A program made the position numbers. DNA of 64,000 nt from a virus (taxonomy: Duplodnaviria; Heunggongvirae; Uroviricota; Caudoviricetes): the IMG/VR virus record IMGVR_UViG_2880366365_000011; one strand, written 5' to 3'. Positions 36,001 through 42,000 of this stretch are shown piece by piece (positions within the stretch are counted from its first letter, which is position 1; every line of letters starts with the position of its first letter).

Positions 36001-39000
36001 ACAAAAACGGCAATTAACGAGGCGCTCCGGAGGATGAAAAAAGCGGGTCTGGACAAACCTGAACTTGAGGCTTTTTTGCGGGATATGATCAACGGCAATC
36101 AAAAAAGCTGGCTGGCACATTGTACCGATTCAGAGGCGTTAATAATCGATAGGGTTATTGGTGAAGTACTGGCAGGTTATCCCGGGCTGCTCAATGTTCT
36201 GAGTCAGCGTTATGTGGGGCGGGGGATGACTAAGCGCAAAATGGCTGAATTGCTGAATGATGCACATCCGGAATGGAGTTTAAGAACCTGTGAAAGACGC
36301 ATTGAGCATTGGCTAAAGGTGGCAGAATTTATTTTGTACAAACCAATGGTTATGGCTTTTGGTATAGAGAAAAAAGTTATTGCTTTTTGACGTAAAAACT
36401 GCTTCAATTCCGGTAAGCTTCGCAAAGCTGTACCGCGAGGCGAATAGCAGACATGGACATTTGAAAGAGCCCGCTTTTTGCGGGTTTTTTTATGACTGAA
36501 AAACGGCACGGGGCGTTAAACGCGCTGGTGGTTGCTAATACCGGTCTTTCAACTTGCTGGCTTTTTCGACAAGAGTTATTGGTATGTCACGTTAACCGGA
36601 AAAGGGAAAAAGACATGCTAAAACAGCAGGATATGACAGAAACCGCCAGAGTGGTGTTTAATGAATTAAGCGTTACCGAACCGGCGACAGTCGGGGAGAT
36701 TGCGCAGAATACTTACCTTTCACGCGAACGCTGCCAGTTAATACTGACCCAGCTGGTTATGGCGGGTCTGGCAGACTATCAGTGCGGTTGTTACAGACGC
36801 ATTCAGTCCTGAAGGCTTTTTATTTGTGGTAAATGGGCGGCTGGTGGGGGGGGCGGCACCTGTCAGTCCTTTGCTTATGTGTTGATGATAATTTACCTTT
36901 TGGGGCTATAATTGAGCTAACCAATTGCTAATGAAAGTAAAATTATAATGGCTGTTGTCTGTTCAGTTATCATGGTTTGCTCCCCAATTAATATTTTTCT
37001 TGAAAAGGATACGTTGTCACTTAAGCCAGGCTCAGTCGTTCTGGCCACCAAATGCATCAGGGAGCTTTTCCTTATGCATTATGGCAAAGTTAAAATTGTC
37101 GATATAAGCGAATCCGTCGTAAGTCAATATCTGGAAAGTCAGCATAAGCTGACGAGGACTCGTCTGACTGACATTCCGCTTTACCTGTTGCTGGAACCCA
37201 ACAATCCTGCGTTGGCTGCGGCTTTAATTACCAGCCAGGGATTTTCCGGAGAGGTCACGGATATGTTTCTTATGATGGCCTGCCTGTCTCTGTTTGAAAC
37301 AGATGAACGGATGTCATTGTTTTTAAGTGGATGTTTATCCAGCATAAGTGCCAAAGTCAGGGCGATAATTCAGACAGATATATCAGCAAGCTGGACGCTT
37401 GGTGCGATTGCTCTACAGTTGCATATGAGTGAGAGTTTGTTAAAGACAAAACTGAAAAATGAAGGGGGCATGTTCAGTCGCTTGTTGCTGGAAGAGCGGA
37501 TGCGTGTTGCTGTAAATATGTTATGTTCCCGGTATGGATATGGACAGGCTGTAGCAGAAAAATGTGGTTATTCAAGCCGGTCCTACTTTATTTCTGTATT
37601 TCACCGCTATTATGGCTTCCCGCCAGACAGATATGTATCCAGGCAAGGGCTTGATTATTGATTTTCATCTGATTATTATTTTTTGGCTCGGCCCTTTAGC
37701 TCAGTGGTGAGAGCGAGCGACTCATAATCGCCAGGTCGCTGGTTCAAATCCAGCAAGGGCCACCATCACAAACCGCCATTAGCTTATCAGGAAGAGCAGA
37801 CGACACCATAACAGGGTTGTTGGTGCGGGGCCGGGTCCCCGATGGCGGTCCATTATCGGTATTCTGCGTTGTTAGCTCAGCCGGACAGAGCAATTGCCTT
37901 CTAAGCAATCGGTCAGTGGTTCGACTCCACTACAACGCGCCACACTTATTTTCCAGGCTCGCTTCGGCGGGCCTTTTTTGTATCTGCGCCACGCCCGGCG
38001 CATACCAACCACAGAGCCTTTCGGGGGTGAGCTTACGGAGTGGTCAGTGTGACTTTCTCTGTGGGCAGATCGCTCCCGGGCGTTGGCTCACCCACCCAAA
38101 GGAACGTCACGATGTTTGGAATCTTCAAAAAGAAAACCCGCAGAGCGGCAACGGAAATTAAAAAGTTTGAAAAACGCGATCTGGCACAGGTGGTGATTAA
38201 CGCCGCATACCTGGTGGCCTGTGCAGATGGTGAATGTGAGGCATCCGAGAAAGCGAAGATCGAACAGGTACTGCGTAATCAGCCTGCGCTGTCCGCGTTT
38301 ACGTCAGAAATTAATGCGATTAGCGCAACCATTATCGGTCAGCTGGATACGAACTTTAAAACTGGTCGTCGTGCGGCGTTACGTGAGATTGAGGATGTGA
38401 AACACGATACGCGTGAAGCGGAAGATGTGCTGGATGTGGCGGTGGCCATTGCGGAGGCAGACGGCGAAATTGAGCCGGAAGAGCGCAAGGTGCTGGAAGA
38501 GATTGCCGGTGTTCTGGGTCTTCGTCTGGAGAATCACCTGTGACGGTAAAACTGCGCCTGGCTGTGGCTGCACTCCTGCTGTTTCTGGTGGTGATGGTGG
38601 ATTTCACCAGCAGAATCATGTCGGTGCTGGCGGATGGGGTGCTGGTCTGCGGCATTGTGGTATTGCTGTGGCCGGTGATAAAAAGAAACAGCCTGCATAA
38701 TGCTTGATTTTTTTGTTTGCTGTTTATTAAAAACACTTCTGCATGGTGAATCCCCCTGTGCGGAGGGGCGATCAGCAACCAGGTATATGGGATAATCGCG
38801 GATTCAGGTGCTGATACTGAATTCACCGGGAGGCACCCGGCACCATGCTTTGCCACAAAAGTGTTGTTTCTGTTTTTCTCAAACTATCATCGTTATCCCT
38901 TTATTTCCGGCTGCGCATGGCGCGGCTTTTTTTTACGACCAGCCACTGGCAGATGGTCATCCTGTGATTTGATTCCGGTTCCGGCTTTTTAACTCTGTTC

Positions 39001-42000
39001 CTGTACACGGGAGAAATTCGATGTCGATTAAACATTATGATGTTGTCAGGGCGGCGTCGCCGTCAGACCTTGCGGAAAAGCTGACACACAAACTGAAAGA
39101 GGGCTGGCAGCCGTTTGGTAGTCCGGTGGCCATAACCCCTTATACCCTGATGCAGGCGATTACAGCAGAAGGTGATGTGGTGGTCAGTGGTGCAACTGAG
39201 CCGGATTGGTACTACGTCATCGTACTGGCCGGGCAGTCCAATGCCATGGCTTACGGTGAAGGGCTTCCGCTGCCGGATTCATACGATGCTCCGGATCCGC
39301 GCATTAAACAGCTGGCGCGCCGCAGTACAGTGACGCCGGGTGGGGCTGCCTGCAGATATAACGATATTATTCCGGCCGACCACTGCCTGCATGATGTGCA
39401 GGATATGAGTACGCTGAATCATCCGAAGGCAGACCTGAGCAAAGGGCAGTACGGCTGTGTCGGCCAGGGGTTACATATTGCCAAAAAACTGCTCCCGTAT
39501 ATCCCGAATAACGCGGGGATCCTGCTGGTACCATGCTGTCGTGGTGGTTCGGCATTTACCCAGGGCGCGGAGGGGATATTCAGCGAGTCCACGGGGGCCA
39601 GCCAGGATTCGGCGCGCTGGGGTGTGGGTAAACCGTTATATCAGGACCTGATTGCGCGCACCAAAGCTGCATTACAGAAGAACCCGAAAAATGTGTTGCT
39701 GGCGGTGTGCTGGATGCAGGGAGAGTTTGACATGAGCGCCGCCACCCACGCACAGCAACCTGCGCTGTTTACAGCCATGCTGACACAGTTTCGTGCTGAC
39801 CTCTCCGTGTTTAACGCGCAGTGCCATGGTGGCAGTGCTGCAGATGTGCCGTGGATTTGTGGTGACACGACGTATTACTGGAAAAATACATACGCTACCC
39901 AGTACGACACCGTGTACGGCGGGTATAAAAACAGGGAGAGTGAGGGCGTTTATTTTGTGCCCTTCATGACAGACGGTAACGGCGTCAATACCGCCACTAA
40001 CGCGCCGGCAGAAGATCCGGATATTCCGGCATCAGGATATTACGGTGCGGCATCGAGAACGAATGGAAACCAGGTATCATCAAACCGCCCGACACATTTC
40101 AGTTCATGGGCGCGCAGGAGCATTATTCCGGATCGTCTGGCAACCGCTATTCTGAACGCAGCCGGGCGCACCTCAGCCTTCATCAGTGGTAAGGCACCGG
40201 AAATCAAACCCTCGCCCGGCGGCAACACGCCATCGGGTCCGTCTGCAGATACGTCCGTTCGCACAATCTCCCTGCTGCCGGCAGCCGGAGAGGCTGCTGC
40301 GCAGGGCTGGAGCATTAAGGATGGCGGAATTCAGTTGTCAGATGGTGTATTTAAGATCACCAGGCAGAGCAATAAAACCTGGTCCCTGACGCATCCGGTG
40401 GATGACGCAATTACCCTGCTGACACAGGGCGGCAGACTGACCTGTAAGTTCCGCCTGTCAGGCGCACTGACCAACAATCAGTTCGGGCTGGGGATTTATC
40501 TGTATACGGACGCTCCCGTTCCTGATGGTGTGGCGATGACGGGTACCGGTAATCCGTTCCTGATGTCGTACTTCACTCAGACCACTGACGGCAGAGTGAA
40601 TCTGATGCATCACAGGAAAGCCGGAAACACGAAGCTGGGGGAGTTCGGCGATTACGGTAACGACTGGCAGACGCTGGAGCTGGTGTTCACCGCCGGCAGT
40701 GCCACGGTTACTCCGAAACTGAATGGAGTGGCTGGCCCGGCATTCCAGGTTATAAAAGACAGTCTGACACTGGGACTGAATGCGCTGACGCTGACGGATG
40801 TTACAAAAAATGCAGCGTATGGCGTTGAGATAGAAAGTCTGATGCTGGAGATAAATGCACCGGCAGCATAATAAAAAAAGCCAGCGACTGACCTGAAAAA
40901 GAAGACGCTGGCTAAAAGGCCTTATATGTTTGTAGAGACTTATTTTTCACAGACAGCAATGATGCCTGTCAATATATTATCAATATGCGGATTGTTTCAG
41001 TTACAGATGCTTTATTAAGGAAAAAAACAGCCAGCACTGACTTTCGGTGGAGAGGTGCTGGCTCAAAAGGATAGATGTACTTCACATGTTGCTTCTATAT
41101 GGCAGTACATTTTCTGACAGACAGTGACGGATGTTGTCAAGATATTGTGTCATTTATAACCTGAATCGGGGGAGGCCGGAATGTTATCTGGCATTTTTAG
41201 CAGAGCCTGAATGCCATAATCACGGCTCCCGGCGTTGGCCGTCAGTGGGTGACACTGGCGGCTTTTTTGTTTTCCTTTACTTTCATTTTCTGTCGGCGGT
41301 GACGGAGACATACATCAGATGGAAAAAATCACAACGGGTGTGTCATACACCACGTCAGCGGTGGGGACGGGATACTGGTTACTGCAGCTGCTGGACAAAG
41401 TCTCTCCGTCCCAGTGGGTGGCGATAGGCGTGCTGGGGAGTCTGCTGTTTGGGCTGCTGACATATCTGACGAACCTGTATTTCAAGATTAAAGAAGACCG
41501 GCGTAAGGCGGCGCGGGGAGAGTAAAGTGATGAAGAAAAAATACGAACTGGTTGTTAAAGGGATAAATAATTACCCGGATAAGATTACTGTTACTGTGGC
41601 ACTGGAAATTGGTGGGTATCCGTCACTGTTGTTGCCAGATGTGGCGATTAGTCTTGACCGTACTGAAGGTGCCACGCTGGAGTTTTACGAAGCTGAGGCG
41701 AAAAAGCAGGCGAAGCAGTTTTTCATGGATGTTGCTGCCGGGTTATGTGAAGGGGATGGTCCGTTACCGGAAAAGCGTCCCGTAATTTTAGAGGCGCAGG
41801 ATGTGTTGATAACCTACAGAGGAAAACTACCGGGAATATGCGCTGGCGGAAGCGGTGGTGGCGCGTCTGGATACAGACTTTGTGGACCCGAAAAAAGCGG
41901 CGGTGGCAGATGTCTCCCCTGCGTCCATCACCCATGATGTGAAGGGCACGGCGTCAAGCGGTAATCCGGATGCGGATGCCGAGGCCGCGTTTGGCCAGTT

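Follow-up and report, generated by a model that had tools for sequence, protein, structure and literature searches.

A Q-to-holin cargo block with an AraC/XylS regulator, almost certainly PsrB, in a prophage of Escherichia coli O157:H7

Gene content and source of the block

The 64,000-nucleotide stretch of viral DNA analysed here (IMG/VR record IMGVR_UViG_2880366365_000011, Caudoviricetes; hereafter the window) contains, at positions 36391–41318, a block of cargo genes in the late region of a lambdoid prophage. The block is exactly the gap between the stop codon of a gene in the position of the antiterminator Q (36390) and the ATG of a holin gene (41319), and its genes and both of its tRNAs all lie on the + strand (Table 1). 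An earlier note on this DNA had listed here a small open reading frame (ORF), an AraC/XylS-family regulator, two tRNAs, a TerB-like pair and a NanS-p-like esterase, and every one of these genes is present, intact and on the + strand. The description ‘TerB-like pair’ is half right, because the first gene belongs to the TerB family (TciA), whereas the second encodes a small membrane protein of the DUF3927 family (TciB).

A 5.8-kilobase (kb) query over the block matches dozens of E. coli O157:H7 chromosomes at 100% identity, and of 5426 complete E. coli genomes 369 contain at least 80% of it, so the structure is genuine and conserved rather than a product of chance. When mapped to the genome of EC4115, the window resolves into two tandem lambdoid prophages, and to the right of 29568 the two sequences are identical save for one mismatch. 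At its right end the window runs through three NleG (DUF1076) effector genes into a truncated ydfJ; in strain Sakai, prophage Sp11 ends at the matching ydfJ junction, beside nleG5-2/6-2/2-3, and the gene order of the block corresponds one-for-one to Sakai ECs_2193 to ECs_2188. O-island 57 (OI-57) of EDL933 spans z2048–z2151, with its terminal nleG2-3/6-2/5-2 as z2149–z2151 (reviewed in PMC10877973, PMC8565820). Judged by these junctions and gene orders, the window prophage is Sakai Sp11 in ydfJ and the ydfJ-proximal half of EDL933 OI-57/CP-933O.

Taking the evidence below together, we consider it very likely that the block is the late-operon ‘moron’ region of a ydfJ-integrated O157:H7 lambdoid prophage, in which exchangeable cargo modules are inserted between Q/tR′ and the lysis genes, and that its regulator is PsrB. 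Identities, positions, family memberships and mosaic breakpoints were computed here; the targets and phenotypes of PsrB, the activity of NanS-p and the transcription of STnc100 are taken from the literature.

Table 1 Features in and around the Q-to-holin block (window positions)
Feature	Position	Strand	Evidence or remark	Sakai tag and annotation
Q-position gene, DUF1133, distant Q21-type late antiterminator	35836–36390	+	Pfam, PHROG, PDB	ECs_2193, phage antiterminator
Structured leader ending in tR′-like intrinsic terminator	36400–36492	+	Hairpin 36462–36492 and U-run	
65-amino-acid ORF, possible small winged-helix protein	36615–36812	+	PHROG 331, E 4e-37	ECs_2192, hypothetical protein
Candidate sigma-70 promoter, ATGATA-16-TATAAT, 36 bp upstream of psrB	36885–36912	+	Consensus match only	
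psrB (almost certainly; EDL933 z2104), intact 237-amino-acid AraC/XylS regulator	36948–37661	+	Pfam, Sakai frame identity	ECs_2191, phage regulatory protein
ileZ, tRNA-Ile2 (anticodon CAU)	37690–37765	+	ARAGORN, Rfam tRNA 72.5 bits	ileZ5, tRNA-Ile
Decayed argN (tRNA-Arg UCG) remnant between ileZ and argO	37773–37852	+	Local alignment to Sp5 argN2	
argO, tRNA-Arg (anticodon UCU)	37866–37942	+	ARAGORN, Rfam, Sakai	argO5, tRNA-Arg
Intrinsic terminator past the tRNAs	37955–37984	+		
tciA, TerB family	38112–38543	+	Pfam TerB PF05099, 53.4 bits (cut-off 24.4)	ECs_2190, TciA/TerB-like
tciB, 55-amino-acid DUF3927 membrane peptide, 4-nt overlap with tciA	38540–38707	+	Pfam DUF3927, 62.3 bits	ECs_5731, hypothetical protein
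STnc100-family small RNA (PasD relative)	38712–38935	+	Rfam RF02076; terminator 38909–38927 and U-run	
nanS-p, predicted sialate 9-O-acetylesterase, 616 amino acids	39021–40871	+	Pfam DUF1737-SASA-DUF6645	ECs_2189, hypothetical protein
AT-rich esterase–holin spacer	40872–41318	+	Terminator 41237–41263 and U-run; fold z −2.4	
Class II (phage 21 S-type) holin, intact	41319–41525	+	Pfam Phage_holin_2_1, 112.8 bits; PHROG holin families	ECs_2188, holin
Truncated ydfR fused to capsid-gene fragment	41527–41850	+	Sakai Sp11 homology ends at 41838, inside ydfR	

The AraC/XylS regulator

The sole AraC-like sequence in the window is a protein identical to the full ECs_2191 reading frame of Sakai, which exceeds the Pfam cut-offs for both HTH_AraC (50 bits) and HTH_18 (37.8 bits). 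Aligned with ECs_1087 of Sakai prophage Sp4, the gene named psrA (PMC13502914), it is identical at 215 of 237 positions (91%), with the 22 amino acid differences falling mostly in the N-terminal domain. PsrB has been described as z2104 in OI-57 and as the closest homologue of PsrA, at 90% identity (reviews PMC10877973, PMC8565820). Given the OI-57/Sp11 location, the identity with the ECs_2191 frame and the agreement of the measured 91% with the reported 90%, the window regulator is almost certainly PsrB itself, beyond a mere resemblance to the Psr/PatE class. The earlier note had likened the gene to prophage regulators such as PatE and Psr, an understatement now that the comparison it proposed has been run: identity is 91% to ECs_1087 (psrA) and 37% to ECs_0287, which we infer to be PatE.

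Copies of a psr gene occupy two places in the listed O157:H7 genomes, and the median over all carrying genomes is also two. At the DNA level, psrB matches occur in only 829 of the 5426 genomes, with no similarity to core genes, and a search for protein homologues returned E. coli and Shigella alleles only, at 39–100% identity. Q-to-S regions also house more distant Psr homologues, there with the modules arranged differently. In Sakai, both ECs_2191 and ECs_1087 are annotated as 195-amino-acid products that start from an internal methionine (ECs_2191 at 39933–40520 of Sakai stretch L004). Residues 1–42 are conserved in homologues down to 37–39% identity, PatE included, so the 237-amino-acid form of the RefSeq PGAP annotation is favoured.

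The best NCBIfam match of the regulator is YdeO (residues 1–229, E 2e-30), at 106 bits against an equivalog cut-off of 348, and the GadX family scores 87 bits against a cut-off of 500. The gene is therefore neither of two things that would have undone the earlier note’s proposal: it is no copy of a chromosomal AraC paralogue, YdeO being the nearest family, and it is no pseudogene, the frame being intact with a ratio of nonsynonymous to synonymous substitution rates (dN/dS) of 0.43 against psrA and 0.22 against a phage copy, lower still in the DNA-binding domain. By these ratios, psrB is under purifying selection. AppY is grouped with YdeO and GadX as acid-resistance AraC regulators.

The DNA-binding domain superposes on GadX (3MKL; E 2e-18, 43% identity) with a root-mean-square deviation of 1.6 Å. 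An AlphaFold model built from a shallow alignment of 13 sequences has a predicted local distance difference test (pLDDT) score of 72.7, and its top full-length folds are CsvR, Rns and ToxT, with a template modelling (TM) score of about 0.4 owing to the orientation of the domains. A ligand pocket or fatty-acid sensing was considered and set aside, the model being too weak to speak either way (N-terminal pLDDT about 60–75, TM about 0.4).

According to the reviews that describe it (PMC10877973, PMC8565820), PsrB acts on two promoters, binding that of gadE and that of hdeA (−132 to −45), elevates GadE/YhiF and acid survival and, when supplied in trans, represses type III secretion. The YdeO- and GadX-like features of the window protein fit the published activation of gadE and hdeA by PsrB, YdeO being the EvgA-dependent activator of gadE. 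The primary studies of PsrB are reportedly those of Tree et al. (2011) and Yang et al. (2015), known here through summarising reviews.

The candidate promoter upstream of psrB (Table 1) is the best consensus match in the block (10/12) and lies in a stretch of 41% guanine plus cytosine (GC); the psrB region as a whole is AT-rich, at 41–46% GC. Promoter-like sites in the block are no commoner than in shuffled sequences (7 versus 6.4), and terminator-like sites are mildly above them (11 versus 6.4, standard deviation 2.9). The prophage around psrB bears type III secretion effectors: it ends in three NleG genes, and nleG7 lies where the tandem prophages meet. A Pch-family regulator alongside psr, pchB (ECs_2182), is present in Sakai Sp11 and absent from the window; its absence is a strain-level loss through the deletion that joined ydfR to the capsid-gene fragment and is no trait of the regulator.

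The toxin slot

Two Stx phages provide the frame for the block. Sakai Sp5, an Stx2 phage, has the order Q, ileZ, argN, argO, stx2A, stx2B, nanS-p, S, and the Stx1 phage YYZ-2008 has the order Q, stx1AB, nanS-p esterase, holin S. The architecture of a Stx-converting phage without stx, as the earlier note had described the region, is thus borne out by both frames. A tblastn search with Stx1A/B and Stx2A/B against the whole window found no stx-like sequence (best E 0.87), which rules out a hidden stx remnant.

Homology to the Stx phages breaks off sharply on either side of the toxin position. On the left, similarity to phiSTEC1575-Stx2k begins at 36517 and ends at 37990, 43 bp short of the stx2A of that phage; on the right, similarity to Stx1 and Stx2a phages restarts at 38723–38727, 87–95 bp past their stxB, and the stretch from nanS-p to the holin is approximately 99% identical to Stx1a phages. 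These breakpoints define the toxin slot as 37991–38722, filled in the window by tciA-tciB. The earlier note had the regulator, tRNAs and esterase standing ‘instead’ of stx, which does not hold for the regulator and tRNAs, because phiSTEC1575-Stx2k carries ORF65, psr (91.6% identity), ileZ, argN and argO directly upstream of stx2k (L009, 5643–8324). The ORF65-psr-tRNA module is therefore an independent cassette and no replacement of stx, and a GAD/LEE regulator (LEE, locus of enterocyte effacement) can share a phage with the toxin.

The protein encoded by tciA matches PHROG 632 (‘tellurite resistance’, TciA-like) at E 1e-68, and that encoded by tciB matches PHROG 1470 (‘TciB-like’) at E 4e-30. 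A reading of tciAB, ORF65 and their neighbours as a defence system was dropped, since PADLOC gave marginal matches only (E 0.003–0.005, about 14 bits).

Antiterminator position, leader and small ORF

The Q-position protein belongs primarily to DUF1133 (Pfam, E 4e-105). It also reaches 33.1 bits against Phage_antitermQ (PF06530; cut-off 26 bits), matches PHROG 753 (‘anti-termination protein Q-like’) at E 5e-81 and weakly matches the Q21 structures 6P18/6JNX in the PDB (E 5e-4), and is thus a distant relative within the Q21/Phage_antitermQ family. About 75 nt past its stop codon lies the tR′-like terminator, which would be the expected target of Q antitermination. The leader that ends in this terminator folds at −34.7 kcal/mol (z −3.4; none of 200 shuffles as good) and may yield a short PR′–tR′ transcript like lambda 6S RNA or StxS. 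The leader also shows a sub-threshold resemblance to IsrK of Salmonella Gifsy-1 (36417–36490, 19.8 bits, E 0.94).

The 65-amino-acid ORF is the first gene past Q/tR′ in several lambdoid phages and follows a different type of Q in PPyecE_EH1910, in the Stx2k phage and in stretch L012. Its match to the TrmB winged helix-turn-helix (wHTH) domain reaches 18.3 bits, under the Pfam cut-off of 25.6. The cluster to which it belongs has 1869 members, listed under generic names only (‘helix-turn-helix domain-containing protein’), with no Z or ECs tags. In Sp4, the ORF upstream of psrA (ECs_1086, 79 amino acids; 48344–48583 of L005) shares 48 of its first 49 residues with the 65-amino-acid ORF, beyond which the two differ in the manner expected of a frameshift; the 65-amino-acid form is the widespread one.

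The tRNAs

The first tRNA is labelled Met by ARAGORN from its CAT anticodon, whereas RefSeq and Sakai annotate tRNA-Ile (ileZ5 in Sakai). Its body is of the Ile2 type and not of the Met type, to judge from the sequence, with the lysidine modification presumed, and it is identical at 76 of 76 positions to ileZ2 of the Stx2 phage Sp5. The second, argO, is identical to argO1/argO2 at 73–74 of 77 positions; in its T-stem, paired changes (CAGTGG...CCACT against CACTGG...CCAGT) preserve the pairing. Between the two lies a remnant of argN, in which the acceptor and T arms are recognisable and the anticodon arm is scrambled and lengthened, and on which neither ARAGORN nor Rfam makes a call; Sp4, Sp5 and the Stx2k phage all have an intact argN.

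The codons read by ileZ and argO, ATA and AGA/AGG, are used in the genes of the block: ATA at 8–18 per 1000 codons (0 in tciA), and AGA plus AGG at 7–36 per 1000 (0 in the holin gene).

The esterase and its flanking small RNA loci

The esterase aligns with NanS (3PT5) over residues 59–379 at E 9e-122, with the GQSN motif aligned, and its C-terminal domain matches the NanS-p C-domain 6YP6 at E 2.5e-29, which places it as a predicted member of the NanS-p sialate O-acetylesterase family, whose three domains are an N-terminal DUF1737, a SASA/SGNH esterase and a lectin-like C-terminal domain. At the DNA level the gene is 99% identical to the copy of the Stx1 phage; the protein is 55% identical to ECs_1207 of Sp5. 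All tested prophage NanS-p alleles of EDL933 are reported as active esterases (review).

Directly upstream of nanS-p, an STnc100-family small RNA (sRNA) is matched at 38712–38884 with 104.7 bits, twice the gathering score of 47. The literature reports 11 copies of STnc100 in EDL933, most of them transcribed with low ribosome occupancy and one, at 1,893,978, inside OI-57. Two annotations overlie or adjoin this locus: a frameshifted ‘hypothetical protein’ pseudogene in RefSeq, on the opposite strand at 38902–39044, covers the sRNA terminator and the start of nanS-p, and in YYZ-2008 a small + strand coding sequence (gp41) is annotated over the stretch equivalent to STnc100. An Rfam scan of 33–43 kb found no AgvB, AsxR or other family at E ≤ 1 save STnc100, sok, the tRNAs and the sub-threshold isrK-like match.

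Downstream of nanS-p, the spacer before the holin ends in a strong terminator with an 11-bp stem. It is multi-copy: across 698 genomes, the median number of places per genome is 5. A repeat search within the spacer found short, probably chance repeats only. The spacer is 99% identical to NC_011356, the representative PasA phage of the Zhu, Shabalina and Storz 2026 preprint, and on this identity and on synteny it is probably a PasA-type sRNA locus.

State of the prophage and other window features

Past the holin, the homology to Sp11 ends within ydfR, and the head–tail genes past 41838 (41527–42436 region) are similar to their counterparts in the adjacent tandem prophage (90.7% identity to window 3–773). 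The window lacks the endolysin, antirepressor, Rz, pchB and large terminase found in Sakai Sp11, the portal gene carries a frameshift, and a 1.3-kb IS3-family insertion sequence (IS) interrupts the DnaT-like replication gene at approximately 28258–29568, where EC4115 has none. With this deletion of the lysis and terminase region, the frameshifted portal and the IS insertion, the cargo block stands intact inside a prophage unable to finish a lytic cycle.

The IS3-family element has a transposase ORF at 28636–29526 and an ALIL frameshift pseudoknot at 28594–28710. Elsewhere in the window, the early and nin region of the psrB prophage holds a hok/sok toxin–antitoxin locus (33222–33546; sok Rfam 113.5 bits), the DicF sRNA near dicB (24648–24699, − strand) and a YgiW/YdeI-family stress-tolerance gene (33666–34010). 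The junction of the tandem prophages (approximately 16000–22000) contains nleG7, another DUF1076 (NleG-family) gene, remnants of an integrase and RecE, and an IS66-family (ISEc8) element within a split IS256-family transposase gene; the three NleG effectors beside the truncated ydfJ lie at approximately 59500–62700. Both of these ranges are approximate, having been transferred from the EC4115 annotation.

How the block may work

We propose that the block would act as a series of modules. In the first, the 65-amino-acid ORF is paired with psrB, whose product, a YdeO/GadX-like activator, would bind the gadE and hdeA promoters and raise GadE/YhiF and acid resistance, leading indirectly to repression of LEE type III secretion. 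The second, ileZ and argO, would decode AUA and AGA/AGG, host-rare codons present in the block genes. The third, tciA-tciB, sits exactly at the stxAB site of Stx phages. The fourth consists of the STnc100 sRNA, NanS-p and the probable PasA-type sRNA, with NanS-p predicted to de-O-acetylate Neu5,9Ac2 and so render mucin sialic acid usable. In the lysogen, psrB would be expressed from its own promoter, for which the site listed in Table 1 is a candidate, under H-NS-type silencing; with active Q, all modules would receive additional read-through from PR′.

Several observations count against this picture. The name PsrB was reached by way of location, copy number and the 90% identity reported for PsrA and PsrB, and the locus of psrA itself is disputed, being z1789 in OI-50 (CP-933N) in the reviews and ecs1087 in Sp4 in another source (PMC13502914), a disagreement that may reflect strain differences or flaws in the original EDL933 prophage assembly. 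The N-terminal domain of the PsrB model is moderately confident, with pLDDT of about 60–75. A consensus scan between Q and tR′ found no convincing PR′ or Q-binding element, and the prophage is defective in the window strain, with its lysis/terminase region deleted and an IS in a replication gene. Deletion of psrB alone has little secretion phenotype (reviews PMC10877973, PMC8565820), and native expression of the gene may therefore be low.

The sharp edges of the toxin slot invite a different history, in which the prophage descends from a Stx-converting phage whose stxAB was exchanged for tciA-tciB through recombination in the conserved flanking sequences. In three Stx phages the breakpoints line up with the stx operon (37990 for Stx2k; 38723–38727 for Stx1 and Stx2a), ileZ matches its Sp5 counterpart at 100%, the stretch from nanS-p through the holin matches Stx1a phages at 99%, and repeated loss of stx beside the esterase and PasA is discussed in the Zhu, Shabalina and Storz 2026 preprint. 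The direction of an exchange, however, is unreadable from breakpoints alone; tciA-tciB occupies the same position in the non-Stx phages 434, JLK-2012 and PPyecE_EH1910, the tblastn search shows no stx remnant in the window, and the Q type (DUF1133) is unlike the Q of Sp5 and YYZ-2008. We regard such a descent as unlikely.

A more speculative extension of the modular reading, to which we give rather little credence, is that the Q/tR′ switch has been kept as a host-level input. Q, made from its own gene once the SOS response has lifted repression, or provided in trans by another resident prophage of the same Q type, would read through the terminators at 36462–36492 and 37955–37984 and co-induce psrB, the rare-codon tRNAs, tciAB, STnc100 and NanS-p, with the 65-amino-acid wHTH ORF perhaps a partner or modulator of PsrB. 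If true, prophage induction, for example of an Stx phage, would be tied to GadE-mediated acid resistance and to shut-off of the LEE.

The state of the prophage raises the question of whether the block is simply inert baggage, transcriptionally silent, with ORFs that are intact because decay has not yet arrived. The loss of endolysin, Rz, terminase and pchB, the frameshifted portal, the IS in the replication gene and the decayed argN would all fit, as would the lack of a secretion phenotype when psrB alone is deleted (reviews PMC10877973, PMC8565820) and the AT-rich psrB region, which suits H-NS silencing. Set against this, dN/dS is below 1, hundreds of genomes share identical, intact copies of all seven ORFs and of both tRNAs, the OI-57 copies of STnc100 give abundant transcripts in EDL933 (literature), psrA is regulated and expressed in Sakai (PMC13502914) and all tested EDL933 NanS-p alleles are active (review). 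Silence of the whole block is therefore improbable.

That the regulator is instead a Psr paralogue other than the published PsrB, either the PsrA gene or an unstudied allele to which PsrB data would transfer by homology only, has very little going for it: the conflict over psrA naming and locus, the shorter, 195-amino-acid product annotated in Sakai, the many E. coli alleles at 57–93% identity and a comparison made without a named PsrB reference sequence all leave room for it, but the flanks that define OI-57 are also those of the window, the 64 kb contain a single AraC gene, each O157 genome has two copies whose 91% identity fits the reported 90%, and the allele is conserved at 99–100% identity in at least 588 records.

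The preferred reading is thus the modular late region with PsrB as its regulator. The contents of the block are already known from published work: PsrA/PsrB, PatE, ileZ-argN-argO, NanS-p, the STnc100/Pas sRNAs and O157:H7 prophages that resemble Stx phages without stx have all been described. The refinements added here are the precise boundaries of the toxin slot, the independence of psr and stx, the two sRNA loci (STnc100 and the probable PasA type), the tR′-like terminator and the decayed argN; both sRNA loci, the terminator and the remnant are elements absent from the earlier note. The locus serves as a worked example of lambdoid late regions as plug-in sites for host-regulating cargo, in which the psr module and stx are independent cassettes able to coexist, as in the Stx2k phage.

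Comparison with known regulators and phages

Compared by way of Sakai tags and review descriptions, PsrB (z2104/ECs2191) shares with the window gene the OI-57/Sp11 island in ydfJ, the ECs_2191 frame and the AraC/XylS C-terminal domain, with no detectable difference. PsrA (z1789; ecs1087 in Sp4) comes in an ORF65-psr-ileZ module that is 92.6% identical over 1.5 kb and occupies the same Q-to-S position; it differs in lying in another prophage, in that Sp4 keeps argN and in the frameshifted C-terminus of the small ORF of Sp4. Deletion of psrA, unlike that of psrB, has a secretion phenotype (reviews PMC10877973, PMC8565820).

PatE (z0321, OI-8/Sp1; ECs_0287 by inference) is likewise prophage-borne, a full-length homologue and YdeO-like, and it is reported to act on the hdeA promoter within the segment bound by PsrB, −132 to −45 (reviews). 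At 37% identity it is more distant, and its gene lies at the right end of a highly degraded prophage, outside a Q-to-S block. YdeO and GadX share a family likeness with PsrB and converge with it on the control of gadE and hdeA, with scores far under the equivalog cut-offs.

Relative to the Stx phages 933W/Sp5, YYZ-2008 and phiSTEC1575-Stx2k, the window has no stx, carries tciA-tciB in the slot, has a DUF1133 Q and a decayed argN, and its lysis cassette is truncated past the holin. Shared with this group is the order Q, tR′-like terminator, ileZ/argO, STnc100, nanS-p and a P21-type holin. Within this order, the published arrangement pasD-esterase-pasA-holin (Pearl Mizrahi 2021; Zhu, Shabalina and Storz 2026 preprint) is matched by the succession of STnc100, nanS-p, the terminator element and the holin.

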